A DNA stretch of 64,000 nucleotides, taken from Gammaproteobacteria bacterium. GTDB lineage: Bacteria; Pseudomonadota; Gammaproteobacteria; Eutrophobiales; Eutrophobiaceae. Below the pieces are notes generated by a model that was not told the DNA's origin, ran no database searches, and worked only from the letters and a program-made list of their open reading frames with translations. A program made the translations under genes and the position numbers. Positions 27,842 to 57,253 of the stretch are shown here, one piece after another. Numbering within the stretch: position 1 is the stretch's first letter; each line of letters starts with the position of its first letter. The stretch is from assembly GCA_965204045.1 (NCBI GenBank), contig CBDBDW010000002.1:1887284-1951283 (forward strand), in the 5' to 3' direction.

Positions 27842-29335
27842 CTACTCGCCCCCCTTATCCTGATTGGCCGGGTTATTCTGTGGTGGTTTCTCTACCATAG
27901 TGGCGGCGTTGCCGTTGAGTGCGATGTCGATGGCGGCGAGGGGATTGTAGCCCTGGCAGGCCATGGACTGCAAGTAGCTGGAGATACGGCAGTAGGCGGC
28001 GGCGTAGTCGGGGGTGCGGAAGCAGCCTGAGACTTTCTGTTTGACCTTGGCCATGCGGATATCGCGCTCGGCGCGGTTGTTGGTGAACGGCACCTCGGGG
28101 TCGCGGGCGAAGCGGAGCACTTCGGTTTCGTACTTGATAAGGGCCTCGTGCAGGTTCTCGGCATCGGATTTGGCGATGCGCCCGCGTCGTTTGGTCTGGC
28201 GGGGCGGGGGTTTGGGGAGTTCTCTTTTGGCCTGTGTGAGGAGGGTGCGGTAGCGTGTGCGCACGGCCTTGTAGTCGGGCTCGCTGAGCGCCTTGTCGGG
28301 GTGTTCACGCACCTGTCGGCAGGTCTTGAGCAGGAGTGTTCCCATGCGCCTGGCCCAGGCATGGCCGTGGGCCTCTTCGATGAAGCGGAGGTCGCGTAGC
28401 AGGTGGCTGCCGCACAGGGCATGCTCGCAGTTGTCATAGGCAAAGTAGCTGGCCCAGCGGTCGTGGACGAGGACGCCGCGGTAGCGGGGGATGATGTTTA
28501 ACTCATCGATGGCGTCGCGCCCGCGCTGTCGATGGACACACTTCAGCGTCAGGTGGCCGGCGCTGACGCTGTGCAGCCAGTGGGTCTTACGACCGATGCG
28601 CAGGCCGGTTTCGTCCGCGTGCAGCACGGGCTCGGCGAGCAGGCGTGTCACCGCGGCGGTCTCCCACCCGGCCAGGGCCTCGTGCAGGCGTGTGAGCCAG
28701 GCCAGCAGGGTGGCCTCGGCGAGTGTGCGTCCGGTCAGCGCCGCGAGGGTCTGTGCGGTGCGCCGGAGCGAGAGCATCTGGGCAGTCAGCAGGTGGGTGG
28801 CGAACGCCACGATACCGTGGCCGTACTGCAAGGGCCCCGGCATGTCCTCGGGGAACCGGCCGCGGGTCTCGGTACGACAACGCGGACAGGTCTTGACCTC
28901 GGCCTCGACCGTCAACTCACGCGTCTCGAAGACGATATCGACCTGCACGCGCCGCTCGTGCTCGTGCGGACTGACGTTGGTGAGTGCGTGTCCGCAGGCC
29001 CGGCACTCGGTGACCGGCGCGGTGCGCGTCTCAACCACCAGACGGTTGGCGCTGCCGTGGGCGGCGCCCGCCCGCGGGCCCTTGCCTTTGGCGCCAGGGC
29101 GCCCGCGCGCAGTCTCGTCCGTGCCAGTCCGGGAACTCGGCAGGCCGGAGTTCTGTGACCCCTTCGGCGTGGTCCTCTCCATGAACACCGCCAGCAGCAA
29201 CTCGAACAACAGCAGCATCGCCTCAAACAGGGCGCGGCCCTCGGGGGTCATCCTGCCGTCCGCGCACAGCGTCGCAAAGCGCGCCTTCAAGGCCTCGAAC
29301 TCCGTGCGCAACGAGGCTTTGTTTACCGTTGCCAT
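27842..29335 (-). CDS. IS66 family transposase (TnpC-type DDE)
   Basis: 497 aa. Zn-finger 'CRACGH...CPRC', 'HADETGLRI', 'CGSHLLRDL' and 'TNNRAERDIR'. The stop codon lies inside the left TIR. Confidence 0.85.
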   Translation of the reverse strand: MATVNKASLRTEFEALKARFATLCADGRMTPEGRALFEAMLLLFELLLAVFMERTTPKGSQNSGLPSSRTGTDETARGRPGAKGKGPRAGAAHGSANRLVVETRTAPVTECRACGHALTNVSPHEHERRVQVDIVFETRELTVEAEVKTCPRCRTETRGRFPEDMPGPLQYGHGIVAFATHLLTAQMLSLRRTAQTLAALTGRTLAEATLLAWLTRLHEALAGWETAAVTRLLAEPVLHADETGLRIGRKTHWLHSVSAGHLTLKCVHRQRGRDAIDELNIIPRYRGVLVHDRWASYFAYDNCEHALCGSHLLRDLRFIEEAHGHAWARRMGTLLLKTCRQVREHPDKALSEPDYKAVRTRYRTLLTQAKRELPKPPPRQTKRRGRIAKSDAENLHEALIKYETEVLRFARDPEVPFTNNRAERDIRMAKVKQKVSGCFRTPDYAAAYCRISSYLQSMACQGYNPLAAIDIALNGNAATMVEKPPQNNPANQDKGGE

Positions 29336-29339
29336 GGCC

Positions 29340-30017
29340 TCACTCCACTTCCACCGCCATCATCGCCGCCAACACCGCCAGGCGCTCCGCCGCCGGCAGC
29401 GCCCGGTAACGCCGGCCCCAGTTCGCCGCCTTGCGCTTGACCTGCTGGCGATGGGTGAAGTTGCGCCCCGCATACCCGGCCCAGAACACCCGGTCCGGCT
29501 CGAAGTTGAACCACACCCGCTCGGTCACCACCCCCGCCTGGTTCATCACCTGTAACGACACACGGCGCCAGCCCGACAGCCGCTCGTCATACAACGCCGA
29601 CGGATAGCCCGACACCATCACCGCACAGGGCAACCGCTTGAGCAGCGCCAGCAATGCCTCGTGGTCACCCTCGTCATAATCATGACGGTAACGCCGACCC
29701 GACTTGCGCGTGCTGTGCAAATATGGCGGGTCGCTGTATACCAACTCCGTGCCGTCAAACGGAAAATCCGCCAGAAACCGGTGGCAACAACCGTGTACCA
29801 GTTCCACCGGATAATCGCACTCAAACGCCGACAGCGCCCGCCCATCGATGTCAATCCCGATGTTGCGCAGCGCCGCCGGCTTGCGCCGCATGATGGCCCC
29901 GCCGCCCAGGTGCGTCTCAATGTACACACTGTGCGGCGGCATCAGCGCAATCAACGGCTGGCACAGCCCCGTCGTTGCTTTCGAACCGAGATACGCATTC
30001 CCCATGGCGCCTACCAT
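29340..30017 (-). CDS. D12-class N6-adenine DNA methyltransferase (Dam-like)
   Basis: 225 aa. 'YLGSK', AdoMet motif 'YIETHLGGGAIM' and catalytic 'VYSDPPY'. It ends 4 nt before the transposase ATG. Confidence 0.75.
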   Translation of the reverse strand: MVGAMGNAYLGSKATTGLCQPLIALMPPHSVYIETHLGGGAIMRRKPAALRNIGIDIDGRALSAFECDYPVELVHGCCHRFLADFPFDGTELVYSDPPYLHSTRKSGRRYRHDYDEGDHEALLALLKRLPCAVMVSGYPSALYDERLSGWRRVSLQVMNQAGVVTERVWFNFEPDRVFWAGYAGRNFTHRQQVKRKAANWGRRYRALPAAERLAVLAAMMAVEVE

Positions 30018-33760: not shown

Positions 33761-34975
33761 ATGCTAAGGAAGATATCAATCGAAAATTTCTTTTCGATTA
33801 AGGACAAACAGGTTCTTGACCTTGCTGTGCCCAGCAATGCGCCGGATTCTCCCTGCTTCGCCATTAATAAGGAAATATCCGCTACCAGGATTCCCAAGGT
33901 AGTTTCAATTTTTGGCGCAAATGCTTCAGGTAAGACGACCGTATTGCGAGCGTTGGGATTTTTAAAGTGGTTTTTGACCGAATCGTTTAATCTGACACCT
34001 ACAAATACTTTACACCTGATGCCGTTCCTCGATTTAGAGGCCAAGCATAGTATTTCACGATTTGAAGTTGAATTCGACAGCGATTTGATAGAGGCAGGAA
34101 AGTCTTGTATTTATCGATACAGCCTGGAGATACGACACGATCCCGGCAATAAAACTCTACTCCAATCAGAAGCCAGGCCTGTTGTTGAGTCAGAAGGCTT
34201 GTATTTTGCGCCGGAAGGTAAATTCCGCAGGTTGTTCTATCGTGAAAGGGAACAAATAAAGGATTCCCCCGAATTTAAAGTCAAAGTAAAAGATTATCCG
34301 CTTCAAACCTTTCGGGATAATGCCAGTGTCATACCCACACTGGTTCCATACAACCATGCAGTCTCGAATGCTTTCACTTCGGTATTAAATTCAATTTTCA
34401 CAAATATATCTACACTGCAAAAAAATGATTTTGATGAGAATCTGATCACTAAATTTTATGCATCAAACGAGGATGTGCTCAAAAAACTGAACAGTAAATT
34501 ACGAATGCTGGATTTGGGCATCGATAATGTTTTCATCAGTACAATTTATAACCATGTACCAGAGCCTGTTTTCAAACATTCCGGGTTAAATTGTGAAGTG
34601 CCATACATTTTGGAATCGCAGGGCACACAAAAGTTTTTTACGCTGTTTCCCTATATTGACCATGTGCTTGAATCAGGAGGATTACTGGTTCTTGATGAAA
34701 TAGACAATGACGTTCACCCGGCCCTGATGCCGGAAATCATCGGCTGGTTCCACGATGAACGAACCAATCCCCATAACGCCCAATTAATTATGGCATGCCA
34801 CAACGCATCTTTACTGGAGCATCTGGAAAAAGAGGAAATCTATTTCACTGAGAAAACTCTTGACGGCAGAACCCAGGTTTACGGGTTAAAAAATATCTCC
34901 GGAGTCAGAAGAGTAGACAACTACTATAAAAAGTACCTGGGCGGTGTATTCGGCGCCGTGCCGAATATCGGTTGA
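33761..34975 (+). CDS. ABC/SMC-like AAA ATPase (AAA_15/21 type), AbiLi-like
   Basis: 404 aa. 'ISIENFFSIKD', Walker A 'GANASGKTT', signature-like 'ESQGTQKFF', Walker B 'LLVLDEIDNDVHP' and 'MACHNASLL'. Confidence 0.8.
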   Translation: MLRKISIENFFSIKDKQVLDLAVPSNAPDSPCFAINKEISATRIPKVVSIFGANASGKTTVLRALGFLKWFLTESFNLTPTNTLHLMPFLDLEAKHSISRFEVEFDSDLIEAGKSCIYRYSLEIRHDPGNKTLLQSEARPVVESEGLYFAPEGKFRRLFYREREQIKDSPEFKVKVKDYPLQTFRDNASVIPTLVPYNHAVSNAFTSVLNSIFTNISTLQKNDFDENLITKFYASNEDVLKKLNSKLRMLDLGIDNVFISTIYNHVPEPVFKHSGLNCEVPYILESQGTQKFFTLFPYIDHVLESGGLLVLDEIDNDVHPALMPEIIGWFHDERTNPHNAQLIMACHNASLLEHLEKEEIYFTEKTLDGRTQVYGLKNISGVRRVDNYYKKYLGGVFGAVPNIG

Positions 34976-34987
34976 GGTTTGTTACCA

Positions 34988-35557
34988 ATGCAGGGAAGAA
35001 AGACGCGAAAAAGGATTTTCCTGGGATCCGAAGGTATCAGCGAAAGAAATTACGGGCAGTACCTACGGCTCATTGCAGAAAAGTATAATTTACCGATTCA
35101 CATTGATTGCAACTATGTGACCGGTGGTGGCGACCCGTTAAAGGTGGTCGAGGAATCGAACAAGCTGATGGAAAGGAACTCAAGAAACCACGGAGACTAC
35201 CTGGTAAAGGCCATAATGCTGGATGCGGATAAATTGGGCCGTTCTAATGACAGGGATAACAGGATAAGACCGTTGGTTTCAAGCGGAAAAATTAAGCTGC
35301 TCTATAGCTCCCCGAATTTCGAGGCATTCCTGTTGAGGCATTTCCCCGGATATGAGAATAAAAAACCTCCAGCCAATGCGTCATTATCCGAACTGGAAAA
35401 GGTCTGGCCTGGCTATTCAAAAGGAATTGATGCCAAGTCTATTTTTAAAGAAGTGGGGGAAGACGGCCTTTTGAGGGCTTGTACGGTAGAAGACAGCTTG
35501 AGAGATTTTTTAATCAGTATAGGTTTTGGCCGTATCTTTCCTGACCTGAGGAAATGA
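34988..35557 (+). CDS. RloB-like (TOPRIM-related) protein, AbiLii-like
   Basis: 'IFLGSEGISERNY' and 'LYSSPNFEAFLLRHF' match the RloB pattern (xEGxxTExxY ... SNPCFElW). The ATG at 34988 has GAGG 10 nt upstream. The track's TTG at 34979 lacks RBS spacing. Confidence 0.7.
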   Translation: MQGRKTRKRIFLGSEGISERNYGQYLRLIAEKYNLPIHIDCNYVTGGGDPLKVVEESNKLMERNSRNHGDYLVKAIMLDADKLGRSNDRDNRIRPLVSSGKIKLLYSSPNFEAFLLRHFPGYENKKPPANASLSELEKVWPGYSKGIDAKSIFKEVGEDGLLRACTVEDSLRDFLISIGFGRIFPDLRK

Positions 35558-35601: not shown

Positions 35602-35841
35602 TCAGTCAAGTCCCCTTTCACATTCTTCAAGGCCGGTCTCCATCCCCTCGATGATGGACTCCCGCATACCGGGGCTCGAAATCAGGTAGAGAGTCTCATT
35701 GATGGCATTCCAGTCCTCCTCCGCGAGAAGTACTGCATTGTTCCTTTTCCCGGTAATAACAATCGGTTTATGGGTTTGAGATGCTTCTTCAATCAGTTTA
35801 TCTAACCTGGAACGAGCTTCTGTTGCATCAACTATGACCAT
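35602..35841 (-). CDS. Phd/YefM family antitoxin (no cognate toxin gene adjacent)
   Basis: 79 aa. 'VDATEARSRLDKLIEEASQTHKPIVITGKRNNAVLLAEEDWNAINETLYL'. Confidence 0.8.
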   Translation of the reverse strand: MVIVDATEARSRLDKLIEEASQTHKPIVITGKRNNAVLLAEEDWNAINETLYLISSPGMRESIIEGMETGLEECERGLD

Positions 35842-36181: not shown

Positions 36182-37501
36182 TCAAGGTGAATCCCCAAGA
36201 ACAATCTCCGGAAACCTGTGCAACAGGTACAACGGGATATTGATTATCCTGCCATCCTGCCGCAGGTTCATCAGTGTGGTCCTGACCAGCCTGGAGGGAT
36301 GATACCTGTCATCATAGGCGAGCAGGCTCTTTTTCTTCCTTGAAATTCCTGCCTTCACCTCCAGTGGATAGAGTTCATGTTCATAGGGAACAACGAAATC
36401 GACTTCAGCCATGTTTTCGCTGGCCCAGTAATAGAGCTGTTTCTCATGAGCGCCGACCAGGGTGACTGCGGCCAGGTTTTCAATGAAAGCTCCCTTGTAT
36501 TCGGTAAACAACCGGTCACCTTCGACCAGTATGCGGGCAGGTATGTCTGCCATCGCCGCCAGCAGGCCGGGGTCCAGCAGGTAGAGCTTGAATATATTGG
36601 ATTGGGCATACGCCTCAACCGGCAACCTGGGGGTGGAAATTTTCACCGATTTGTAGATCAGCCCCGCATCCAGCAACCACTGTATGGCGTTCTCATAGTC
36701 ACGCCCCCGGGAGCTTTTCCTTACCGCCGAAAAAATAAATTTTTTGTTTTCCTTTGCCAGTTGGCTTTGAACCTGGTTCCAGACCGTGGAGATTTTCATG
36801 ACCTCGCGCGGGTCGGCATGCTTGGAAAAGTCCAGCAGGTATGCATCCAGGACTTCCCTCTGTATTGTTCTGACGCTATGCAGGTCCTGGTTTTCCCGGT
36901 AGTGCATGACAGTTTCCGGCATCCCCCCGGTAAAGGTGTAGACCTTCAACAAATGAATTAACTGTTCGTGAATGGGGGCGGGGAGTGGGCTTAACCTGTC
37001 GATGGAATCAATATGTTCACGCAGCCGGCTTTTATCCAGGGCATCCAGGAACTCACAGAAGCTGAGCGGATACAAATCCAGGAAGTTCACTTTCCCCACC
37101 GGAAAGCTCGCCGGTTTGCCCAGTTTAACTCCCAGCAACGAACCTGCTGCCGCGACATGGTATTCACCGGCCTTCTCGGCAAAATATTTCAGGCTGGTAA
37201 GCGCACTGGGACAAGCCTGGATTTCATCAAAAACGATCAACGTCTCAGCCGGAACGATGGGCAGATCCAGCATAAGGCTTATTTCGGAGATGATCCGATA
37301 CGGGTCCAGGTCCGCCTGGAAAAGCCGTGAGGCGGACGCCGTCTCTTCAAAGTTCAGGTAGGCAAGGCGTTTGTAGTACTGTTGGCCGAACTCGCTCAGA
37401 GAATAGGTTTTCCCGGTCTGGCGTGCACCGCGTAAGACCAGGGGCTTGCGCCTGTCCGAGCCTTTCCATTGGAGGAGTTGTTGTTCGATATCGCGTCGCA
37501 T
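36182..37501 (-). CDS. AAA ATPase with DUF4143 C-terminal domain (COG1373 type)
   Basis: 439 aa. Walker A 'RGARQTGKT', Walker B 'LIVFDEIQ' and a long C-terminal DUF4143-like region. Confidence 0.75.
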   Translation of the reverse strand: MRRDIEQQLLQWKGSDRRKPLVLRGARQTGKTYSLSEFGQQYYKRLAYLNFEETASASRLFQADLDPYRIISEISLMLDLPIVPAETLIVFDEIQACPSALTSLKYFAEKAGEYHVAAAGSLLGVKLGKPASFPVGKVNFLDLYPLSFCEFLDALDKSRLREHIDSIDRLSPLPAPIHEQLIHLLKVYTFTGGMPETVMHYRENQDLHSVRTIQREVLDAYLLDFSKHADPREVMKISTVWNQVQSQLAKENKKFIFSAVRKSSRGRDYENAIQWLLDAGLIYKSVKISTPRLPVEAYAQSNIFKLYLLDPGLLAAMADIPARILVEGDRLFTEYKGAFIENLAAVTLVGAHEKQLYYWASENMAEVDFVVPYEHELYPLEVKAGISRKKKSLLAYDDRYHPSRLVRTTLMNLRQDGRIINIPLYLLHRFPEIVLGDSP

Positions 37502-37597: not shown

Positions 37598-37740
37598 GTG
37601 GACGTAATATGGTGTCTGGCTGAAATTTAACAGCCGTTATATGGAAATGACCCATTTCCGCCCAAATGATAGTAGTGGTGAACCGGGGGTGTGACCAACC
37701 GAGATAGAGTCAGGTGGTCTGACCCTTTCTTACAATAACT

Positions 37741-38178
37741 TCATCTTGTTTCCGGCACGAGACTTTTCACTGGTTCGGTGGCAATGGAATCACGCTTGAA
37801 AGTAATTGCTATCCATTCCAGAGTTTTGCTGCCGGTATTGCCGGAATTATGCCGGTCACTCAGATGCACAGGTCCGGGACGCCAGAACACCGAGTTGGGG
37901 CTTTCAAGAAGCTCAGCTTCTGTGGATTTAAATATGGTGTCTTTGTCCCCGATCCGATACGTCACTTCATCGCTACGCTTCAGTACAATGACCAACTGGT
38001 ATTCCGGATGGGAATGGATGCCTTCCCACTGGCCGGGTTCCAGAACGAATCTTTGCACAATGACACGATCGTCTTCCATCAACACTTCGCCTGGAATATT
38101 GGGATAGTATTGTTCTCCAACCGCGAAAGGACTTAATGCCGTCAGTAATACCAGACTGAAAATGGGTGAGTGCTTCAT
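37741..38178 (-). CDS. Secreted cupin-domain protein
   Basis: 145 aa. Signal peptide 'MKHSPIFSLVLLTALSPFAVG' and cupin-like 'GQWEGIHSHPEYQLVIVL'. Confidence 0.55.
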   Translation of the reverse strand: MKHSPIFSLVLLTALSPFAVGEQYYPNIPGEVLMEDDRVIVQRFVLEPGQWEGIHSHPEYQLVIVLKRSDEVTYRIGDKDTIFKSTEAELLESPNSVFWRPGPVHLSDRHNSGNTGSKTLEWIAITFKRDSIATEPVKSLVPETR

Positions 38179-38226
38179 AATTCCGACCCTTTCTTATATT
38201 GAGCGTTGCGACTTTTCGGTTAATTA

Positions 38227-38850
38227 TTAAAGTTCTCTGAGAGATTCGAGGCGACTCAGCCAGGCGTTAAATCCGGGACATTCGTTTCTTAATTTATCCA
38301 ATCCGATTTCGAGTGCCAGAGACGGACCGTGCAGTGTCTTGCGGTAGCCGGGGATCAGATTTGAGATACGCTTGCTTGGCGCTGTCTCCGAACTGTCATT
38401 GATCTCCTCGGGCGTGCCGAATGTTGCCCTGATCTTCCGAAGGTCAACCAAAGGAGCATTATCCCATACGCTTTTGAATGCGTTTACATCAGAGAACAAC
38501 AACCCTTCAAACTCATGAACCTGGACGTACGGGAATATATTTCTCTCATCAATTTGTTCAATGCTATTCTCAATGGCCTGTACGAGCATGTGGGGAGACA
38601 TTTCATTCTTGTCCTTAAATCCGTAGAAATCCACCAGGGAGGTCACGGCATCGAAACTATACCGAAGATGCTGCAATTCACGCGAAAGCCTGTTGATTGT
38701 GACATTGCCGCCACCTTGAACGTTATGCCGCGCCCGGCCAAGCAGCACAGGAGTTACAAAAACGTCCCTGCTATGCAGGTGGCGCGCAAGGACCTGCCGA
38801 ACAAATTCTTCCTCCGTTTGTCCTTCTACGGAGATAGCCAAACGTATCAA
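38227..38850 (-). CDS. DUF4276-like (TOPRIM-related) protein
   Basis: 207 aa. 'IRLAISVEGQTEEEFV' and 'VQVHEFEGLLFSD'. Its start overlaps the upstream ATPase stop by 4 nt. Confidence 0.65.
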   Translation of the reverse strand: MIRLAISVEGQTEEEFVRQVLARHLHSRDVFVTPVLLGRARHNVQGGGNVTINRLSRELQHLRYSFDAVTSLVDFYGFKDKNEMSPHMLVQAIENSIEQIDERNIFPYVQVHEFEGLLFSDVNAFKSVWDNAPLVDLRKIRATFGTPEEINDSSETAPSKRISNLIPGYRKTLHGPSLALEIGLDKLRNECPGFNAWLSRLESLREL

Positions 38851-39986
38851 GGCCTACCACCAAGCAGGTTTTTCTGCCAGAGTTCTCCGACACTGAAGTC
38901 ATCCAGCCAGCCCTGGAGTTCCTGTACGTTTTGAGCGTGCAACTCGGTTCGACCTTCTATCATTTCCAGTACAAATAGTTGCTCGAGTCCGAATGTGTCA
39001 ACCATCAATGGCGACTGGGTTGCTACGATTATCTGACGCTCCTGAGCCAGTGACTGTATCATCTCGCCGACCAGTACGACCGCTTTAGGATGCAGGCCCA
39101 GTTCCGGTTCATCCAGCAGCAACACATCAGGTAACATTTCCACCGGCAGGTTCAGCAATGTGACAAGTGCGAAAAAACGTAATGAACCGTCCGATGACAG
39201 ATGTGCTCCGTAGGTCTTGTCCGAGTATTTGGAACGCCAACGCAACGCCACCTTCCCGTGCTGTTCCCCGATCTGAAAGCTGTCGAAGCCCGGCAATACG
39301 CGCTGTACGTGGTGGCAGATTCGTTCATATCTCTGCAGGTCTTCCTGTTCCAGCCAGTACAGGATGGCTGGCAGGTTGCCACCATCGCTTCGCATACGGT
39401 CATGATCTTCTGCATCCCACTTTTTCATAAAGTTTGATGTGGCAGCAGTGTTATGAAATTGATAAACGTCGCAATTCCGTAACAAATGTGTAACTGTTCG
39501 AGCGGTTCGCTGATTTATTTGTGAGGATTGCGCTGAATAGGAGGATTGAGCGACCTCAACAATACTTGCCTCATGGTGCCCGGTTTCGAGGTGTTGCCAG
39601 GGAGCTTCGTTATCCAATATTTTTCGATTGAAGCGGAATGCTTCTTCTGTGAACAACAGCCGGTCAGGGTGGGCATGAGTAAGAGCAAACCGGTAGTCAT
39701 TCCTCCCTTCTTTGGTGTGTAGGGCGATTTCGGCACTGAGCCTTGGCGTCTTATCACTGCCGCCGTGCAGTTGATCATCTGCACCACCCTGTAGTGCGAC
39801 AAACTCCGCAAGCCGCCGCGATTTTAACATCCAACTCAGCATCTCGAAGAAACGGATAAAGTTTGATTTCCCAGAGCCGTTTGCGCCAATCAAAACGTTC
39901 GCTCCGGGTTGCAGGTGGAACTCTATGTCAGCAAATGAGCGGAAACCTTTTATATGGAAATATTCAATATGGGATCGGTCGATCAT
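38847..39986 (-). CDS. ABC/SMC-like AAA ATPase (AAA_21 type)
   Basis: 379 aa. 'FHIKGFRSF', Walker A 'GANGSGKSN', signature-like 'SSDGSLRFF', Walker B/D-loop 'LLLDEPELGLHP' and 'IVATQSP'. Confidence 0.8.
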   Translation of the reverse strand: MIDRSHIEYFHIKGFRSFADIEFHLQPGANVLIGANGSGKSNFIRFFEMLSWMLKSRRLAEFVALQGGADDQLHGGSDKTPRLSAEIALHTKEGRNDYRFALTHAHPDRLLFTEEAFRFNRKILDNEAPWQHLETGHHEASIVEVAQSSYSAQSSQINQRTARTVTHLLRNCDVYQFHNTAATSNFMKKWDAEDHDRMRSDGGNLPAILYWLEQEDLQRYERICHHVQRVLPGFDSFQIGEQHGKVALRWRSKYSDKTYGAHLSSDGSLRFFALVTLLNLPVEMLPDVLLLDEPELGLHPKAVVLVGEMIQSLAQERQIIVATQSPLMVDTFGLEQLFVLEMIEGRTELHAQNVQELQGWLDDFSVGELWQKNLLGGRP

Positions 39987-40015
39987 AATGAAGATTTTAC
40001 CATTAAATGACTAAA

Positions 40016-41303
40016 AGGAACCTCTATTAATTCAGTGTAATGATATAATACGGAGTACTGATTTCAACCCATACTTTCCTGTTTGAGGGTGCTGCCATGA
40101 AGAAGACTCAAGACCTGTTCGGTTCCTTTTTTGACTTGCAGGACGCCCGTTTGACGAAGCTGAAAGACCCGCTGGTGCAGTTGGAGGAGGTGGTGGACTG
40201 GGCGGCATTCCGTCCGTTGCTGTCCCGTCTCCGACCCACGGAGCGCAAGAGCAATGCGGGCGCCCCGCGCCGGGACGAGGTACTGATGTTCAAGGGGTTG
40301 GTGATACAGCACTTGTACGGCTTGAGTGATGAGCAGTTGGAGTACCAGGTAGAGGACCGGCGCAGTTTCCAGCGGTTCCTGGGGTTGGACAATGTCCATC
40401 GGGCGCCGGATGCGAAGACGTTCCGGGCGTTTCGGGAGCAGTTGGTGAAGTTGGGCCTGATGGAGGCGTTGTTCGAGCAGTTTGCCGGGCAGTTGGCGGG
40501 GTTGGGCTACCGGGCGCGCAAGGGGCAGTTGGTGGATGCGTCCCTGGTGCCGGCGCCGGTGCAGCGCAACACGCGCGAAGAGAATGCCAAGGTCAAGGCC
40601 GGGGAAGTGCCTGCGGACTGGGAGCAGGCGGACGCCAAGCCGAAGCGGCGTCAGAAGGACGTGGAGGCGCGTTGGACGAAGAAACGCGGCACGAGTCATT
40701 ACGGGTACAAGAACCACGTGAACGTGGACAATGCGCACAAGCTGGTACGCAAGTATGATGTCACCGCGGCCAACGTGCATGATTCGCAGTTATTGGATGA
40801 CCTGCTTGATGAGGACAACAGCAGCAAGGCCCTCTGGGCGGACAGCGCCTACCGGTCTGAAGAGCAGGAGCAGCGTTTGCGGGAGAAGAAGTATCGCAGT
40901 CACATCCGGCGCAAGGGCAGCCGTAACAAGCCGTTGACGATACGGGAGCAGCAGGGCAACCGCACCAGGGCAAAAGTACGGGTGCGGGTGGAGCACGTGT
41001 TCGGGGCGCAGTGTGCGACCCGCGCCAAGCTGGTCCGGTGCATCGGGCTTAAGCGCAGTGCGTTGGCCATCGGGATGATGAACCTGGTGTACAACATGCG
41101 CAGACTGTGTTACCTGCAAGGGGTCGGTGCGCCTGCTTGACGGGAAACAGGGATAAAACGGTGTCAAAACGACACCTGAGGGCGATAAAACGGCCCGATG
41201 ACGGGCGTATTGAGGTGATGCGGGTCTCTGCGCACCTTACTATAGACAAATATATGAAAAAGGAACCTGCTCAGACCTGAAATTATCAATTAATAGAGGT
41301 TCC
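40016..41303 (+). mobile_element. IS5-family insertion sequence
   Basis: 16-bp perfect TIRs, GGAACCTCTATTAATT (40017-40032) and AATTAATAGAGGTTCC (41288-41303), flanked by CTAA(A) on both sides (40011-40015 and 41304-41308). Confidence 0.85.
40097..41140 (+). CDS. IS5 family transposase (InsH-like N-terminus + DDE_Tnp_1)
   Basis: 347 aa. 'LVQLEEVVDWAAFRPLL', 'LSDEQLEYQVEDRRSFQRFLGL' and 'VDASLVPAP...WADSAYRS'. Confidence 0.85.
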   Translation: MKKTQDLFGSFFDLQDARLTKLKDPLVQLEEVVDWAAFRPLLSRLRPTERKSNAGAPRRDEVLMFKGLVIQHLYGLSDEQLEYQVEDRRSFQRFLGLDNVHRAPDAKTFRAFREQLVKLGLMEALFEQFAGQLAGLGYRARKGQLVDASLVPAPVQRNTREENAKVKAGEVPADWEQADAKPKRRQKDVEARWTKKRGTSHYGYKNHVNVDNAHKLVRKYDVTAANVHDSQLLDDLLDEDNSSKALWADSAYRSEEQEQRLREKKYRSHIRRKGSRNKPLTIREQQGNRTRAKVRVRVEHVFGAQCATRAKLVRCIGLKRSALAIGMMNLVYNMRRLCYLQGVGAPA

Positions 41304-41487: not shown

Positions 41488-41712
41488 ATGCCCCGTAAAG
41501 TTCAACATGTTGTACCCCGAAACGGTAAATGGGCTGTACGAAGATCCGGCGCCAATCGTGCAAGGCGTACTTTCGACACAAAGGGTGAAGCTATTGAAGC
41601 TGCCCGTGAAATCGCTCGGGTTCAGGGGGCCGACCTGTACATTCACGGACAAGATGGACGAATTCAAGAAAGAACCTCTTTTGGAAGCGATCCATTTCTG
41701 CCAAAAGGATAG
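41488..41712 (+). CDS. DUF2188 domain protein
   Basis: 74 aa. 'HVVPRNGKWAVRRSGANRARRTFDTKGEAIEAAREIARVQGADLYIHGQDGRIQERTSFGSDP'. Confidence 0.7.
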   Translation: MPRKVQHVVPRNGKWAVRRSGANRARRTFDTKGEAIEAAREIARVQGADLYIHGQDGRIQERTSFGSDPFLPKG

Positions 41713-41720
41713 ACACAAAG

Positions 41721-42353
41721 GTGGTCAACTCCGGCTTTGATCACAATGTTTTCTTGAATTGTCCGTTTGATGAAGAGTATGAACCTATACTGCAAGCCAT
41801 ACTTTTCTGCCTGGTACGCTTCGGGCTAAATCCGCGTATAGCAACTGAACGAAGTAATGCGGCTGAAGCACGGCTCGATAGGATATATCAGCTTATCGAA
41901 TCATCCCGATACTCGATTCACGATCTTAGTAGATGTCAAGCTATTGAAGCAGGAGAACACTACCGACTCAATATGCCGTTTGAGCTTGGTATTGACTTTG
42001 GGTGCCGCCGTTATGGCAATAAGCCACTTTCCAGAAAGGTCATATTGATACTCGAAGAACAACATTATCGCTATCAGGCTGCGATTTCCGACTTGGCTGG
42101 TAGTGATATTGAGGCGCATGGCGGCAAGTATGAAACCGCCGTAAGAAAGGTAAGTAACTGGCTTGCAGGCACAGGTGGTTTTAAGAGTATTGCTGCCACC
42201 CGTACCTTGTCCGAATACGAAGACTTTCAGATATGGCACTACGAGCAACAGTTTGACGCCGGGTTTTCGGACGAAGATATAAAGGACTATCCTACTGCGG
42301 AACTCCTGCGGGCAATGTGCGACTGGACAGAACAGGGTAGACCAAGACAATAG
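41721..42353 (+). CDS. TIR-like / nucleoside-2-deoxyribosyltransferase-like fold protein (uncharacterised)
   Basis: 210 aa with a GTG start 8 nt after the DUF2188 stop. 'VFLNCPFDEEY', 'YSIHDLS', 'RLNMPFELGIDFG' and 'KVILILEEQ...ISDLAGSDI' parallel the bacterial TIR-like pattern (...RqNVifElGyfiG...). Confidence 0.5.
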   Translation: MVNSGFDHNVFLNCPFDEEYEPILQAILFCLVRFGLNPRIATERSNAAEARLDRIYQLIESSRYSIHDLSRCQAIEAGEHYRLNMPFELGIDFGCRRYGNKPLSRKVILILEEQHYRYQAAISDLAGSDIEAHGGKYETAVRKVSNWLAGTGGFKSIAATRTLSEYEDFQIWHYEQQFDAGFSDEDIKDYPTAELLRAMCDWTEQGRPRQ

Positions 42354-46677: not shown

Positions 46678-46977
46678 TCAAGGTAGTTCTCTCTTTCTAC
46701 TTCTGTGGCGGACATGCAGCACTTCTACCGTATCACCCCGGATACGAAACAGCACTCGATATGGCCTCACAATAAGGTGTCGGATTTCATAACTTCGATA
46801 ACGGCTTTCAATGGCTATCGGACAACGCCTGGGATTTTCTTGCAGGGAAAGTATTTTCTCTTGGATGTTCCGGTACCAGCGTACCGCGTTGGTTATGGAA
46901 TCCTTGGCAATATAATCGAAATTATCTTCGAGTTCAGTGATGACTGAGGGCGGGATCCTGACCTTATAGGTCGGCAT
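46678..46977 (-). CDS. RelE/ParE family toxin
   Basis: 'MPTYKVRIPPSVITELEDNFDYIAKDS...YRVLFRIRGDTVEVLHVRH'. The ATG at 46977 overlaps the antitoxin 3' end. Confidence 0.8.
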   Translation of the reverse strand: MPTYKVRIPPSVITELEDNFDYIAKDSITNAVRWYRNIQEKILSLQENPRRCPIAIESRYRSYEIRHLIVRPYRVLFRIRGDTVEVLHVRHRSRKRELP

Positions 46978-47269
46978 CGGGAAATTTGCCGCCAATGCGT
47001 TTGCTTAAGGCGCAAAAGGCATCGTCGGCTGCAATCCCTTTCCCTTCCTCATGTTCCCTTGCTCCAAGATATGTCTTTTCGAGTGAGTCCAACAGATTCA
47101 TCATATCCTCATAAGCCCGGACATCCTGGATGATGACCTCGGCCTTACCGTTAACGGTAAGGATTTCGGGTTTTCCCGTAGCTTTCAGCCGTTTGATGTA
47201 TTCGTCAGGCTTGCGGCTGAAATCTGAGATCGGATGAATGGCGTCCATTGAAAACACAGCTTTTTTCAT
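46964..47269 (-). CDS. Phd/YefM-type antitoxin
   Basis: 101 aa. 'ISDFSRKPDEYIKRLKATGKPEILTVNGKAEVIIQDVRAYEDM'. Confidence 0.75.
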   Translation of the reverse strand: MKKAVFSMDAIHPISDFSRKPDEYIKRLKATGKPEILTVNGKAEVIIQDVRAYEDMMNLLDSLEKTYLGAREHEEGKGIAADDAFCALSKRIGGKFPDADL

Positions 47270-47380: not shown

Positions 47381-47412
47381 TGTCATTCCGGGCTTGACCC
47401 GGAATCCAGTCG
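47381..47412. repeat. Family-D REP-like hairpin
   Basis: 'tgtcattccgggcttgacccggaatccagtcg'. It supplies the last codons and the stop of the VapB-like ORF. Confidence 0.75.
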
Positions 47413-47661
47413 ATAAACCTTCCTTATATACCGGTCCCGATCTTCCCGTAAAAGTTCAACGCTATCAGTTTGAATCCTGTCGGTCATACCGGAAATCTGT
47501 CGCGTCCGTTCCCGAAAGTCAGCAATATTGATGCGACGGTCGGCCCGTTGCGTCAGCATATAACGCACTTCTGCTTCGAGCGAACGCTGGTTTGTCCTGG
47601 CTTGCGCTTTTAACGTCTCGATCACGTTATCATCAAGGTTGCGGATGGTTAAGGTTCCCAT
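47383..47661 (-). CDS. FitA/VapB-like RHH antitoxin, orphan, with repeat-derived C-terminal extension
   Basis: 'MGTLTIRNLDDNVIETLKAQARTNQRSLEAEVRYML'. No PIN gene lies downstream. The tail '...RLDSGSSPE*' is read from the family-D repeat. Confidence 0.6.
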   Translation of the reverse strand: MGTLTIRNLDDNVIETLKAQARTNQRSLEAEVRYMLTQRADRRINIADFRERTRQISGMTDRIQTDSVELLREDRDRYIRKVYRLDSGSSPE

Positions 47662-47733
47662 GCTCTGATCTCCGGTTAAGGTGCAAGCAATATGCTGGCA
47701 TATTGATATCAACAAGGCAAATAATTCTGAAAA

Positions 47734-47883: not shown

Positions 47884-48624
47884 CTATGCTTGACGAAACA
47901 AAGCCATTTCCAGCTTATGTTTTCGGTTCATCCAGTCAGGAAGTGAGCGTTCAAGCAGGTGTTGGAATTCCGAGCCGTGGTTGTGATGGAGCAGATGGCA
48001 CAATTCATGGATGACCACATATTCAATACACTCCCGCGGCGCCTTTATGAGTTCCGGGTTCAGTGTCAGTGTCGCTTTTCTGCTCAGGCTTCCCCAGCGG
48101 TTCTTCATGTGAGCAATCCTGAGAGTCGGCTTGGAAGCGCCGTGTTTTTGAAAACCAATCCAGCAGTTGTCAAACACTTTTGCAAAATATTGGGCAGCCT
48201 TGTCCAGGTACCACGCCTGCAATAATTCGGCAATATGTTTTGCACAGGCATCGGTTGTACTGATCAGAAAAAACTTACCTTTCAGCAGTACCTGGTCGTT
48301 ATCAGAAGATGTTATTTTCAGGCGGTAACTGCGCCCGAGATATAAGTGACTTTCGCCACCGACAAATTTTCTGGGCGGCGTACGGGGCTCGAACTGGGCG
48401 AAATAACGTAACTGTTTTCGTATCCAGCGCGCTCGTTTCTTAATCTTCGCCTCGACGTCTGCCAACGCAGCTATCATAGGCGCTTTGACCACAACGGCTC
48501 CATCCGGGTATACGGAAATTTCCAGCGACTTTCTGTCCGTAAATTGCAGAACGTAACTGATGATAGAGTCTCCGTAGTTCAGTTGACGACGCTCTCGAAG
48601 GTCAGTCCCCGAGGCGGATGTCAT
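47884..48624 (-). CDS. DUF45/YgjP-like (M48/WLM-type) zinc metallopeptidase associated with type I R-M
   Basis: 246 aa. 'VVIHELCHLLHHNH' (HExxH). Overlaps the hsdR stop by 4 nt. Confidence 0.75.
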   Translation of the reverse strand: MTSASGTDLRERRQLNYGDSIISYVLQFTDRKSLEISVYPDGAVVVKAPMIAALADVEAKIKKRARWIRKQLRYFAQFEPRTPPRKFVGGESHLYLGRSYRLKITSSDNDQVLLKGKFFLISTTDACAKHIAELLQAWYLDKAAQYFAKVFDNCWIGFQKHGASKPTLRIAHMKNRWGSLSRKATLTLNPELIKAPRECIEYVVIHELCHLLHHNHGSEFQHLLERSLPDWMNRKHKLEMALFRQA

Positions 48625-51600
48625 TCAAGATTGCTCCGGCGTCTGGCGACCCTCATGAGTTTTTCGATGATTTCATCCATCTGTTCAACACTCAGTGGTA
48701 CACCATGCTTGTATTTGATCTCATCATGCAGGTAATCATCAATGGCATTCTCAACGTTGTTCCCGGCGTCCGGATCATTCCAGAAATCAACTTTTCTGCA
48801 ATCCATCAAGATAATCTGAGCAGCGAGAGCGGTGTCCGCCGCCATATCGTCAAGTTCTTGTCCGGAAATAGTGTTATGTGCCAGGTAAACAGGTTTTACC
48901 ACTCCGTAATAGGCGCAAGCCTCGTCGTTGTCGCGTAATTTCGCAGGAGCGTCATCGTGCCTCCCGGATACAATCCGGTCGCGTAACCGGGTCACCTGGT
49001 TGAGGTATTCGAGATCACTGATGCGTTTTGCCCTGGAAGCATCAATCACTTCCTGGATCAATTCTGAGAATTTGCTGAAAAACGCCGGGTCTTCATCCAT
49101 CTTTTCGGTAATGGTTCGTTTGACCGCGTGGGCTATGGTATCTGCCCTGGCCGCCGTTGTTTGCCCGCCATAAACACCTTGCTCATCCTTGACCTGATTG
49201 AATGACGAATTATCAAAGATGTTTACCGGCTCATTGAGCCGGGTGACTGTGTCTGCCTGAATATGAGTATCAAGCAGTTTTCTGATACGCGGCTCAATAC
49301 TGCTGAAATCCACACTTTCAGCATAACGCAGCCGGACCGCGCCGCTGAGTCTCTGAAAGCGTTTCAGGTCATCCTTGTAGCGCTTCATCTCGCTTTCATC
49401 GGTTTTTGTTACGAACCGTTCCGATGATAAGGCAATAGCGAGTGTTTTCGCGTATTCCGACAAGCGGGCATAGAACTCCTCTCGCAGTTCCGTGTCGGCC
49501 AACAGCCGTTCATACTGTTCCTCATCGCTTCGGTTTTCAATCTTCCTGAAGATATCCCACAAATCCGAGTGGCGTTGCGGCAGTCTGTCAGCTTCTTCAT
49601 TGATCGATGCGAGCGATTCGGCAAGGTCGTCTTCGTCGAAGTCCTGTAGCACGTCGTACATCGTCAGCGCCATGTCCAGTTCCTTCAGCACGTTGTTGTA
49701 ATCGATGATATAGCCGAATTCCTTGTCCCGGTACACACGGTTGACCCGTGCGATGGCTTGTAACAACGTGTGTTCCCGCAAGGTGCAACACAGGTACAGC
49801 ACCGTATTGCGCGGGGCGTCAAATCCCGTCAGTAATTTGTTTACGACGACCAGGATTTCCGGTTCGTCGCCGTCATTGAAGCGTTTGATGATCTGCTCAT
49901 CACGCTCTTCCTCCGAGCCATATTTGCTCAATTCCTTGTGCCAGAATTTGTTTACGGCGTTTGTTGGCCCTTCATCAATTTGTTCATGTCCCTCCCGCAG
50001 GTCCGGCGCCGAGATGATCACTTCTGAGGATACTGAGCCGAGTTCATCCAGGAACTGGTGATACCTGATTGCGACAGATTTAAGCGGCGCAACCAGTTGC
50101 GCTTTGAAACCGGTGTTCTGCCAATGGGTGCGGAAATGTTCGCTGATGTCGAAGGCGCGCATGTAAACGACCTGGTCTACAGTGTTCAACAATTCGGCGC
50201 GAGCGTACTTTTTCTTCAAATCTGCCTTCTGGTTTTCGTTCAATCCGGTGGGATGCCGCTCAAACCACAGGTCCACGGCCGCTTTATCCTGTTTCATCTC
50301 CGCGTGGCGGCCCTCATACAGCAGCGGAACCACCGCCTTGTCGCTGACCGCCTGCCGAATAGTGTAAGAAGGCTGAATAAGCTCTCCGAATTTGGCGAAG
50401 TTGTTCTTCTGTTCTTTTGTCAGCGGCGTCCCCGTGAATCCGAGATAACAGGCGTTGGGCAGCATTTGCCGCATGCGCGCCGCAAGTTCGCCGAAGTTGG
50501 TGCGGTGGCTTTCATCCACCAGCACGAGGATGTCAGTCGATGTGTCGGTATACTTTTCCGCTGCCAGGGCTGTCTCGAACTTGTGAATCAAGGTGGTGAT
50601 GATGTCCACGCTGTTCTTGAGGTGTTTTACCAGGTTGCGTCCGGAGGTAGCCTGTTCCCGGCTCAGGCCGCAGGCAACGAAAGTGTTGCCCAACTGCCTG
50701 TCCAGGTCCTTGCGGTCGGTGACCAGTACGATTCGCAGGGAACCGATACTTGCATCCAGCGCAAGGGCGCGTACCAGCATCACCATGCTCAGGGATTTCC
50801 CTGATCCCTGGGTATGCCAGATCATTCCACCTTTGCGGCGGCCCTGGACATCGCGTTGTTTAAGGCGACGGATGGTTGAGTGCACGACAAAATATTGTTG
50901 ATAGCGTGCGATTTTCCTGATGCCGTTGTCGAACACGACAAAGTGATAGGTCAGGTCCAACAGTCGTTGGGGGCGACACAGACTGTAAATCGATTTGTCC
51001 TGCTCAGTTGCCAGGCGTCCCTTTTCGCTCTCCAGCGCCTCGAAAAAGCTGCGTGCAAGGGCAAATTCGCCGGAAAACAGCCGGTCTTTCTGCTCAGGAA
51101 CCAGCGGATTGTTGATGCTGGTTTCAACAGCATCTTCACGATCCTCGCGTTCCTGCCAGGCGCTCCAATACTCCTTGTCCGAGCCGGCAGTGGCGTATAA
51201 GGCTGTGGTCTTGTTAACTCCCATCACCAGTTGCGCGTAGATGAACAGTTGCGGGATATAGTCACCGCCCTGGTTACGGATGTTCTGGGATACTGCCTGC
51301 TCAACTTCCTCGTCGGGCGCTTTGCACTCGATTACGACTAACGGGATGCCGTTTACAAATAAAACGATGTCCGGACGTGCGGTTTCCACGCTGTGTCTGC
51401 GCAGTACCGGAAACTCAGCCGTAACCTGGAACAGGTTATTGTCCGGTTGCTTCCAGTCGATGTAGTTCATGGAGAAACTCTTGGAATCGCCTTCGATTGT
51501 TTGTTCCAGGGCAACGCCCAACGTCAGCAGGTCATACACTGCCTCATTGGTCTTTTGCAGGCCCTGGTAGGGGATATTCCTGATTTTCCTGATTGTGGAC

Positions 51601-51824: not shown

Positions 51825-51916
51825 CAGTTCGCTCTACTTGATGTTCAAAGCATGCCAATAGGGCTGGAAACTAAGCTTAGAGGGGTCCATTTTGACTCAC
51901 TAACTCTTCAACAAAA

Positions 51917-52156
51917 TTAATCGCTTCTCGAAGTGTTGATCGCTTCCAGGTGCTCCCGCATGGTTTTACCACCAACCGTGATACCTTCCAACGCCACTTT
52001 GGTTTCTTTGAGTGTAAGCGTGTTGTCTTCAATTGCATTGGAGTGGTAAGTCCAACGCAACACAAGGTCCTCACGCAGGTTTTTGATTACAGCAGGAGGA
52101 AGAGGACGATGAGCATCAAATTTTTGCTTGAGTTGGTCCAGGTGGCGGTAGATCAC
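51917..52156 (-). pseudogene. Fic-family gene fragment (N-terminal part only)
   Basis: 79 aa. 'WTYHSNAIEDNTLTLKETKVALEGITVGGKTMREHLEAIN'. It stops before any HxFx(D/E)GNGR motif. Confidence 0.65.
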
Positions 52157-52217
52157 AGATCAGTTCTCACAATATATTCCGGGCTTGCCCCCTGACTCTC
52201 ATAATGTTCAGGTATTG

Positions 52218-53372: not shown

Positions 53373-53790
53373 CCACTGTTTGTATTCTCGTTATCATTTC
53401 TTTTGCATTCGGATTTATTTTTGAAAAAGCAAACCATTTTTTACCTGTATCTTTAAGTGAGGTTCCGATGTGGTAACCGGTCACAAATTGTGACGGGTTC
53501 ATTCGGCAATACTTCAGCCCTATCTGTTTTTCCGGTCATCACTATATACCCTGTTTCACTGTTTGGAACTGTTTGACCCAGAAGGTAATTCAGGTTTCAC
53601 GGGCCAATGGCAGTTGTTGCAAAAGTTGCAACAACTGACTCGGATGGCGCTGCATGCGGAGAATAAAAATTCATCGGTTTGTCTGAAATTGCAATGTGCA
53701 TTTTTTGCACATTGCTTTGAGACTGGTAAATGGCAATCTCTTTGATGTTTTTGTGCCCTTTCATCCGCTATCTCCTGATTTTACCTTTAC

Positions 53791-54846: not shown

Positions 54847-54859
54847 ATCATTGTCCCTC

Positions 54860-57228: not shown

Positions 57229-57253
57229 TATTTATTCTCCTGTTCGGGCTTGC

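Follow-up and report, generated by a model that had tools for sequence, protein, structure and literature searches.

A stand-alone copy of the candidate anti-phage pair HEC-01 downstream of an IS5-family insertion sequence

The two overlapping minus-strand genes at 38847..39986 and 38227..38850 of the window (the whole stretch of 64,000 nucleotides that was analysed) are a stand-alone copy of the candidate anti-phage pair HEC-01, which already has a name, and the copy is thus an ordinary and not a new one. HEC-01 is the Hma-embedded candidate 01 of PADLOC-DB v2, which was discovered inside Hma systems and was defined in 2024 as an ABC ATPase together with a TOPRIM-like protein that has a conserved metal site (Payne et al., bioRxiv 10.1101/2024.01.29.577857). 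In the same study, one stand-alone representative did not defend E. coli from the BASEL phages, whereas in 2026 one other HEC-01 gene cluster gave E. coli B protection from one or more of the phages T7, T5 and T4 (PMC12881386), and the two published phage tests disagree. The original prediction had described the two genes with their 4-nt overlap and the motifs of both proteins correctly, including the Gln in the H-loop, but it knew of no characterised system with a DUF4276 partner and had itself named an already tested subtype as a refutation. As HEC-01 has been named and was tested in 2024 and 2026, the claim of novelty fails, and DUF4276 is also Mad4 of the methylation-associated defence system MADS of Pseudomonas aeruginosa, in which mad3 and mad4 knock-outs lose defence. 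The locus as such adds little, being a further stand-alone copy in a family of thousands, whose DUF4276 partner by itself makes up 3,223 clusters at 50% identity. No identical sequence has been recorded, the nearest recorded protein is 94% identical, and the source is an uncultured lineage.

The upstream gene, HEC-01A (38847..39986, minus strand), has an ATG start and encodes a 379-aa ABC ATPase of the OLD/SMC type, as found with PADLOC, Pfam and hhalign. The protein matches the PADLOC HEC-01A model PDLC04175 with 1.5e-116, its residues 5-379 lying on profile positions 4-362 of 363, and Pfam recognises AAA_21 (3.9e-27) besides AAA_15 and SMC_N. In hhalign, the OLD ATPase profile is matched with a probability of 98.8% (E 5.4e-17, 310 columns), and by this alignment the HEC-01A ATPase is homologous to the ATPase domain of the OLD family. 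The protein has a Walker A motif GANGSGKSN (G34-S41, with K40), a Q-loop-like YQFH at about residue 176, a signature-like motif SSDGSLRFF (S264-D-G), and a Walker B/D-loop region LLLDEPELGLHP with the Walker B acids D292-E293. The motifs of Walker A, Walker B and the signature are invariant in 75 homologues. In the entropy profile, residues ~110-165 stand out as a variable insert. The canonical His of the H-loop is absent, its position being taken by Gln324 in IVATQSP and by Gln in all 75 homologues, which suggests a switch that hydrolyses ATP slowly.

The downstream gene, HEC-01B (38227..38850, minus strand), starts with TTG and encodes a 207-aa protein that is a putative TOPRIM-derived, metal-dependent nuclease effector. 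Its assignment to DUF4276, made earlier from a recognised pattern, is borne out by Pfam (PF14103, 1.3e-50), in which the score of 172.7 bits exceeds the gathering threshold of 30.2 and all 192 profile positions are covered; together with the AAA_21 match of the ATPase this rules out chance for both open reading frames. In PADLOC, residues 1-205 match the HEC-01B model PDLC04188 with 9.8e-68. The protein begins with MIRLAISVEGQTEEEF and contains also VHEFEGLLFSD, and in an alignment of 52 sequences the residues E9, G10, T12, E13, D74, Y76, E113, E115, E148, P158, R161 and K171 are invariant. In the AF2 model (pLDDT 94.3), the elements beta1-alpha1-beta2-alpha2-beta3-alpha3-beta4 come first and the C-terminal half is helical. 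The invariant acidic residues are found in this predicted structure where beta1 and beta3 end on their C-terminal side, and E113/E115 just past beta4, where the next helix begins. The Glu at the end of the first strand of TOPRIM corresponds to E9, which directly follows beta1 (residues 2-8), and VEGQTE of HEC-01B aligns with VEGKTE of P2 Old. At the position of the TOPRIM DxD after beta3, the family has D74-F-Y76, with D74 ending the strand and an invariant Tyr.

DUF4276 has been placed in the TOPRIM class by the literature (PMC12065111; bioRxiv 10.1101/2024.01.29.577857), and to this extent the predicted TOPRIM-related fold stands, but our own tools did not show it convincingly. In hhalign, the link to the OLD TOPRIM profile is weak, with P 0.0033 for the whole protein, 0.0015 for the N-terminal half alone and a probability of 10-16%, as compared to negative controls at P 0.013, 0.054 and 0.55. 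A Foldseek search of the PDB and BFVD with the confident model gave nothing at E <= 0.001, so that no structural likeness to a solved TOPRIM was found and the assignment is without structural confirmation. Nor was there a relevant match to PDB sequences with phmmer or a profile hmmsearch of HEC-01B, and phmmer with the P2 Old TOPRIM and the RloB-like protein of the window detected no relatives among all open reading frames of 83 related loci. For the homologues of P2 Old the full-length query was used, the TOPRIM fragment having given 5 fragments. PF20469 is the sole secondary Pfam match that recurs in the HEC-01B alignment, with 4 of the 52 members and a best E of 0.01.

The two genes share the four nucleotides TTGA at 38847..38850 (minus strand, context cc-TTGA-ta), in which the TTG start of HEC-01B is fused with the TGA stop of HEC-01A, and the last codons of HEC-01A before this overlap contain GGTGGTAGG; as read from the sequence, this is a translational-coupling junction. 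The ATPase gene is found directly upstream of the DUF4276 gene in 82 of 83 related loci from many phyla, the -4 overlap is kept in 64 of the 82 paired loci and replaced by -7 in 10 more, and the identities of HEC-01A and HEC-01B across loci correlate with r = 0.75. Pairing, overlap and OLD ATPase homology agree with the two-gene module of split-OLD, PARIS or AbiL type that had been proposed. As a cassette of 1776 bp that comprises the two genes only, the pair recurs elsewhere on the chromosome in related loci (L002-L004), with ~89-90% identity of the nucleotide sequence, and the neighbours there are AbiE or a cluster of TerB/BrxC-BrxD-like ATPase and DEAD-helicase genes. Some homologous pairs are embedded on the same strand between the genes of other systems, namely HmaB and HmaC (L009) or the type III genes Mod and Res (L065). 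A survey of neighbourhoods, which had been suggested for association with the ATPase and with defence genes, confirmed the former, but at most of the 59 surveyed loci the immediate neighbours are housekeeping genes, and guilt by association is therefore not general.

In the window, the pair stands alone within a defence island. The GC content is 0.42-0.52 over 34-43 kb as opposed to ~0.55-0.66 in the flanks, and the neighbours include a copy of AbiL, consisting of a second ATPase and RloB (33761-35557, Pfam/PADLOC), an orphan Phd/YefM antitoxin (35602-35841), PDC-S01, toxin-antitoxin genes, a type I RM system (47.9-59.3 kb), DUF2188 and p210. The AT-richer island with a second ATPase/TOPRIM-like pair, a toxin-antitoxin remnant and an insertion sequence had been recognised correctly before. 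A 145-aa open reading frame with a signal-peptide-like N-terminus indeed begins 48 nt downstream of the pair, but its Cupin_2 score of 18.9 bits lies under the Pfam cut-off of 27.2, and the only related locus that keeps it beside the pair is the syntenic relative L001, the cassettes of L002-L004 having no cupin gene. The cupin-like protein is therefore a neighbour and was rejected as the third member that it had been suggested to be.

On the other side lies an IS5-family insertion sequence of 1287 bp (40017..41303, plus strand). Its terminal inverted repeats GGAACCTCTATTAATT are perfect over 16 bp, TTAG stands on either side of it, and it carries the gene of an IS5-type DDE transposase (40097-41140; Pfam DDE_Tnp_1 and DUF772). 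The element is missing from L001, whose alignment runs across the insertion point, and it separates the pair from its ancestral upstream region. The leader between its end and the ATG of HEC-01A is 30 nt long (39987..40016, minus strand) and has a TAAAAT 9 nt ahead of the start codon; the conserved cassette takes in 29 of its nucleotides, the homology with L002-L004 starting at 40015. Inside the end of the element, a sigma-70-like site TTGAAA-16 nt-TATCAT (40040..40067, minus strand) points outward to the ATPase gene. The site is a consensus match only, the best one in 37600-40200 with 10 of 12 positions, and is predicted as a possible present-day promoter of the pair, whose transcription now probably starts from a promoter in this end of the element. 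The insertion 30 nt upstream may also have silenced the operon, and it is a natural example for studying if toxic modules of this kind are activated or shut down by IS elements.

By analogy to its better-known relatives, it is rather likely that the stand-alone HEC-01 module is a translationally coupled anti-phage system of the abortive-infection type and belongs to the superfamily of ABC ATPases with TOPRIM-like nucleases, which includes OLD, Gabija, PARIS, AbiL and Mad3-Mad4. In PARIS, the ATPase cages the nuclease until a phage trigger frees it, and tRNA is cleaved (PMC11464382); the tRNA cleavage has been found for AriB as well as for P2 Old (PMC11464382; PMC12445682). For the complex of the two HEC-01 proteins, its trigger and its substrate we infer a similar course of events by analogy with PARIS and P2 Old. 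HEC-01A and HEC-01B would be made from one mRNA in a fixed proportion and would form a complex in which HEC-01A holds HEC-01B inactive. HEC-01A would sense the infection via its variable insert (residues ~110-165), and ATP binding would then free or activate HEC-01B. With the acidic cluster E9/E13, D74 and E113/E115 and Mg2+ or Mn2+, HEC-01B would cut nucleic acid, possibly host tRNA, the target of AriB and P2 Old, or else DNA, the target of GajA; phage growth would thereby be halted and the cell sacrificed.

A more far-reaching idea is that HEC-01 is not a copy of PARIS but a mechanistically distinct ATPase-nuclease branch, with an ATP-binding switch of low hydrolysis and a nuclease of new active-site geometry and new substrate. 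This is based on the invariant Gln of the H-loop, the acidic set E-x3-E, D-x-Y and E-x-E, and a fold that Foldseek did not recognise as TOPRIM; we regard it as doubtful. If it were true, the 1776-bp cassette with its 29-nt leader would be among the smallest self-contained units of the superfamily.

The tight translational coupling is typical also of toxin-antitoxin pairs, and HEC-01 could thus be a selfish addiction cassette in which HEC-01B is the toxic nuclease and HEC-01A the protein antitoxin; the cassette would be maintained and would spread since its loss is lethal, with no net anti-phage benefit. A minimal two-gene cassette of 1776 bp at differing chromosomal sites and a majority of solitary copies amid housekeeping genes would fit this, PARIS has been described as type II toxin-antitoxin-like in its behaviour, and Pfam AAA_21 is named after the type IV toxin-antitoxin system AbiEii. 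Plasmids and phages, however, are the usual homes of addiction modules, and the pair is rare on the former (13 matches among 72,556) and absent from the latter, with no match in sequenced phages and no PHROG family for HEC-01B; moreover, one HEC-01 representative lowered phage plating (PMC12881386). Addiction without defence is therefore judged unlikely, and the addiction and anti-phage readings are not exclusive, since many abortive-infection systems are toxin-antitoxin-like.

HEC-01 could also serve as an accessory or back-up to a DNA-modification system (Hma, MADS or type III RM) and work only in its company, and the copy described here would then be an orphan without own function, possibly silenced by the insertion sequence 30 nt before its start codon. 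HEC-01 was first found embedded in Hma, as is L009, while L065 lies in a type III RM system; Mad3 and Mad4 work within the 8-gene MADS, in which a deletion of mad5 is possible only together with one of mad2 or mad3; and the stand-alone HEC-01 was inactive in the 2024 test. Yet HEC-01 was among the protecting candidates in 2026, with one representative cluster in E. coli B (PMC12881386), the majority of the closest homologues stand outside such systems, and the cassette travels as two genes only. As at this locus both open reading frames are intact with every family-invariant residue, and the end of the insertion sequence carries the outward promoter-like site, we consider such a dependence slightly less probable still than pure addiction. 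RecF is an SMC-like ABC ATPase that works with the TOPRIM protein RecR, and as TOPRIM partners are thus known in repair pathways such as RecFOR and the models of RecF, SMC and Rad50 match HEC-01A weakly, a housekeeping role in DNA repair or recombination has to be considered as well. All RecF and SMC scores are under their curated cut-offs, however, and the defence-family models are better by ~80 or more orders of magnitude in E-value, which, together with the patchy distribution, the mobility of the cassette between variable hot spots and a GC content under that of the flanks, makes a repair function very improbable. For further work on the HEC-01 family, experimental handles are the Gln of the H-loop, the acids of D-x-Y and E-x-E, the insert of the ATPase, the start/stop overlap and the 1776-bp cassette.

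Compared to HEC-01 as published, the locus agrees in its two proteins and their order; the genes are adjacent on one strand, the proteins are matched by the HEC-01A and HEC-01B models at full length, and some homologues are embedded in Hma as in the HEC-01 paper (L009). It differs from the published systems in that it is not embedded but stands alone in a defence island, with the IS5-family element 30 nt upstream. With MADS it shares an AAA_21-type ABC ATPase that is followed by a DUF4276 protein, as in Mad3-Mad4, and MADS3-4 was already included among the ABC ATPase and TOPRIM systems in the PARIS paper. HEC-01A, however, reaches only 112 bits on the NCBIfam MAD3 model with its cut-off of 420, and HEC-01B of the window matches only HEC-01B models in PADLOC. 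Membership in MADS was rejected on the MAD3 score and because the mandatory mad6-8 do not lie within 10 genes; no mad genes were seen near the pair with PADLOC, which covered AbiL, PDC-S01, the cupin-like open reading frame and p210 in 33.7-42.4 kb, or with Pfam, which alone covered Phd, IS5, DUF2188 and type I RM.

PARIS, too, consists of two genes for an ABC ATPase of the AAA_15/21 group and a separate TOPRIM-class effector. The H-loop position is His in AriA and Gln in HEC-01A, and AriB is of the DUF4435/OLD-TOPRIM type, whereas HEC-01B is a DUF4276 protein. Membership in PARIS was rejected because HEC-01B has no AriB match and the AriA matches of the ATPase come from a generic AAA_21-type model (1.4e-25). 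HEC-01B matches neither AbiLii nor RloB in Pfam and PADLOC, by which also AbiL was rejected, and the earlier view that the effector is neither DUF4435 nor RloB agrees with this. AbiL (AbiLi with AbiLii/RloB) resembles HEC-01 in the order of an ABC ATPase and a small TOPRIM-class partner, in a weak alignment of the helical C-terminal part of DUF4276 with the RloB-like protein of the window (hhalign E 0.0011), and in an EGx[ST]E after the first strand that is common to HEC-01B and this protein. It belongs to other Pfam and PADLOC families, its RloB-like protein has the canonical DxD (LDADK) in place of D-F-Y and E-F-E, and AbiLi of the window retains the H-loop His (CHNAS) where HEC-01A has Gln. 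In class 1 OLD proteins such as P2 Old and in GajA of Gabija, a single polypeptide combines ATPase and TOPRIM, whereas here they are on two genes and the TOPRIM relation is only weakly detectable, and the H-loop STHS of P2 Old differs from that of HEC-01A with its Gln. The ATPase domains of these proteins are nevertheless homologous to HEC-01A, as judged by the OLD profile match, and the VEGxTE motif of the Old TOPRIM is present also in HEC-01B.

The pair, on the minus strand, consists of an ABC ATPase of 379 aa (38847..39986; here A) and a DUF4276 protein of 207 aa with a TTG start (38227..38850; here B), both from the ORF list, and the TGA stop of A and the TTG start of B share the nucleotides TTGA, with GGTGGTAGG just before the overlap. 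Both overlapping ORFs and every motif quoted for them in the original prediction were found in the sequence. By Pfam, A matches AAA_21 (3.9e-27), AAA_15 and SMC_N, and B matches, as had been predicted, DUF4276 (1.3e-50) over the whole profile. PADLOC-DB holds own models for the two proteins, HEC-01A PDLC04175, which A matches over its full length (1.5e-116), and HEC-01B PDLC04188 (9.8e-68 for B). The pair agrees with HEC-01 in all sequence criteria, and judged by these it is a further member of this named candidate family. HEC-01, the 'Hma-embedded candidate 01', has been described by Payne et al. as an ABC ATPase with an associated TOPRIM-like protein that has its metal-binding site in common with the Burkholderia OLD TOPRIM; HEC-01 ATPases are the commonest gene family embedded in Hma systems, and E. 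coli carrying a single representative was not protected from the BASEL phages (bioRxiv 10.1101/2024.01.29.577857). In 2026 a different representative was cloned into E. coli B, and HEC-01 was one of four candidates that protected from one or more of T7, T5 and T4 (PMC12881386). Also Mad4 of the MADS system is a DUF4276 protein (PMC12065111). MADS defence is abolished by deletion of mad3 or mad4, and mad5 is deletable only along with mad2 or mad3. Given the HEC-01 models, the HEC-01 phage tests and the Mad4 deletion data, the partner is thus not uncharacterised, as had been assumed, and the subtype is named and tested.

In an alignment of 75 homologues of A, the Walker A motif (GxNGSGKS), the signature (SDGSLR) and the Walker B/D-loop region (DEPELGLHP) are invariant. 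The H-loop position (residue 324) is Gln in 75/75 HEC-01A homologues, the ~30%-identity clade included, whereas His is found there in P2 Old (STHS) and in the window's AbiLi-like protein (CHNAS). In ABC proteins, degenerate sites that hydrolyse slowly, as in TAP1, typically have Gln in place of the switch His, which is why A may act as a switch rather than as a motor. Aligned by hhalign with an OLD ATPase domain profile (115 sequences), A reached a probability of 98.8% (E 5.4e-17). Its most variable stretch, with indels, lies at residues ~110-165, and ABC inserts at the matching position have been proposed as trigger sensors by Payne et al. (bioRxiv 10.1101/2024.01.29.577857) and in the PARIS work.

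Invariant in 52 aligned sequences of the B family are E9, G10, T12, E13, F16, D74, Y76, E113, E115, E148, P158, R161, K171 and F194. The AF2 model of B is confident (pLDDT 94.3, pTM 0.90), with beta1 (2-8), alpha1 (11-26), beta2 (30-36), alpha2 (52-62), beta3 (68-74), alpha3 (86-96) and beta4 (~105-110), followed by a helical half. In this model the positions of the invariant acids, namely the ends of beta1 and beta3 and the start of the helix directly following beta4, fit a TOPRIM-like metal site. The predicted TOPRIM relation of DUF4276 drew weak profile signals: hhalign of the B family profile with P2 Old aligned VEGQTE with 395-LLVEGKTE, and B against the OLD TOPRIM profile (115 sequences) gave P 0.0033, and 0.0015 for the N-terminal half, compared with 0.013, 0.054 and 0.55 in negative controls. 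OLD-like_TOPRIM (PF20469) was the sole second family matched by more than three of the 52 members (4 matches at a loose threshold, best E 0.01), and the C-terminal helical part of B aligns with the RloB-like protein of the window (hhalign, E 0.0011). Against the relation, Foldseek with the B model found no significant match in PDB or BFVD, sequence and profile searches of PDB gave no match, and the canonical DxD position is D-F-Y in the B family. The published TOPRIM assignment, weakly supported by these positive signals, is thus accepted as likely. The invariant H-loop Gln of A and the D-x-Y / E-x-E acidic set of B are the only features that were not found discussed in the literature cited.

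B has 4,799 relatives in 90% clusters, and at 50% identity the number of clusters is 3,223. The loci fetched, 80 from genomes of many phyla and 3 from metagenomes, come from groups including Gammaproteobacteria, Alphaproteobacteria, Dehalococcoidia, Gemmatimonadota, Binatia, Latescibacterota, Bacteroidota and Cyanobacteria. In 82/83 of them B is immediately preceded, on the same strand, by an A homologue, the contig ending there in the lone exception. The 4-nt overlap is kept in 64/82 loci, and the identities of A and B to the window proteins correlate (r = 0.75, n = 79). Three related loci (L002-L004) carry the pair at ~89-90% nucleotide identity at another site, between der and bamC/dapA, adjoining AbiE or a TerB/BrxC-BrxD-like ATPase/DEAD-helicase cluster. 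As their homology is limited to window positions 40015-38240, that is 1776 bp with the two genes and a 29 nt leader, the unit is a minimal two-gene cassette and the cupin-like ORF a neighbour. This ORF (145 aa, 37741-38178, minus strand; signal-peptide-like N-terminus, sub-threshold Cupin_2 match) starts 48 nt downstream of the pair and had been considered a possible secreted third member, which is not supported: among the related loci only the syntenic relative L001 keeps it beside the pair (97% identical), and in L002-L004 the cassette ends without it. B and the ORF may still be co-transcribed, as no terminator-like site was seen between them.

Upstream, 30 nt from the ATG of A, lies an IS5-family element of 1287 bp (40017-41303) with perfect 16-bp inverted repeats GGAACCTCTATTAATT, TTAG on both flanks and a plus-strand IS5-type transposase gene (40097-41140; Pfam/PADLOC scan). 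It is missing from L001, and the cassette homology of L002-L004 starts at 40015, the same position as the insertion; by this comparison the element has come between the pair and its ancestral upstream sequence. Within the IS end, facing the pair, lies the area's best sigma-70-like match (TTGAAA-16 nt-TATCAT, 40067-40040), and by this consensus match it may now drive transcription. Upstream of the pair, the intergenic region of L001 is longer by ~190 nt (~8640-8830); the extra stretch, missing from the window, has a hairpin-like CCGGGGACAGAATTAATTCTGTCCCC and may be a small mobile element.

The pair region is AT-richer than its flanks, and base composition and Pfam/PADLOC neighbours bear out the predicted island with a second ATPase/TOPRIM-like pair, toxin-antitoxin debris and an IS. 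The second pair (33761-35557, plus strand) comprises an AbiLi-like ABC ATPase (404 aa, PADLOC AbiLi 1e-71) and, 4 nt later, an RloB/AbiLii-like protein (192 aa, Pfam RloB 2.7e-9) with EGISE and a canonical DxD (LDADK), by these matches an AbiL-type system. An orphan Phd/YefM antitoxin (35602-35841, minus; 6e-17), with no toxin gene adjoining, is probably what is left of a toxin-antitoxin pair. An AAA_14+DUF4143 protein (439 aa, 36182-37501, minus) matches PADLOC PDC-S01 (1.8e-163), a representative of which was not among the protective candidates in E. coli B (PMC12881386). On the plus strand at 41488-42353 lie a gene for a DUF2188 protein (74 aa) and, 8 nt beyond it, one for a 210-aa protein that matched nothing in Pfam, PADLOC, NCBIfam or PHROG. 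The counterpart of the antitoxin locus in L001 has Phd plus ParE; L001 also retains the PDC-S01-matching and DUF2188 genes, and the 210-aa protein is detectable there for its first ~51 residues only. Further small ORF pairs of toxin-antitoxin type are at 46678-47269 and 47383-47715. On the minus strand (47884-57877), a type I restriction-modification locus encodes a short second Methylase_S ORF (57254-57877), HsdM (55720-57228), HsdS (52218-53372), HsdR (48621-51824) and a YgjP-like metallopeptidase (47884-48624), and embedded between hsdM and hsdS are two genes, one for a Bro-N protein (54860-55723) and one for a protein of the RhuM family (53791-54897), RhuM being the domain of PADLOC PDC-S05, which has been reported protective (PMC12881386). 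Also on the minus strand, an IS66-family transposase (27842-29335) adjoins a 225-aa ORF (29340-30017) without family match, whose DPPY motif is typical of N6-adenine/N4-cytosine DNA methyltransferases.

The pair is probably a stand-alone HEC-01 abortive-infection module, in which A would sense infection and, in complex with B, release or activate it upon ATP binding, and B would be a metal-dependent nuclease cutting tRNA or DNA. The data show membership of the family, a conserved coupling of the two genes, conserved residues of catalytic type and an association with defence genes; complex, trigger, nuclease activity and abortive outcome are inferred. Co-occurrence with the ATPase holds in the 82/83 loci. 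In 59 other loci, the ORFs closest to the pair are for the most part housekeeping genes, and a smaller share match mad2, mad8, type III methyltransferases or further ATPases. The pair is found on 13/72,556 plasmids and in none of 50,697 phage records, and B belongs to no PHROG family; that the pair is a selfish toxin-antitoxin-like cassette is unlikely. Elsewhere the pair is embedded between HmaB and HmaC (L009) or between type III Mod and Res (L065), or adjoins a type IIG enzyme (L010), and an accessory module of modification systems, orphaned or silenced in the window genome, is a still less likely reading. A RecF/RecR-like repair role is very improbable.

The pair is excluded from PARIS, having no AriB, from AbiL, as B is without RloB match, from MADS, with a MAD3 score of 112 against a cut-off of 420 and mad6-8 not found nearby, and from fused OLD/Gabija. 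tRNA is cleaved by both AriB and P2 Old (PMC11464382; PMC12445682) and is therefore an attractive substrate for B, and DNA would be possible, as for GajA.
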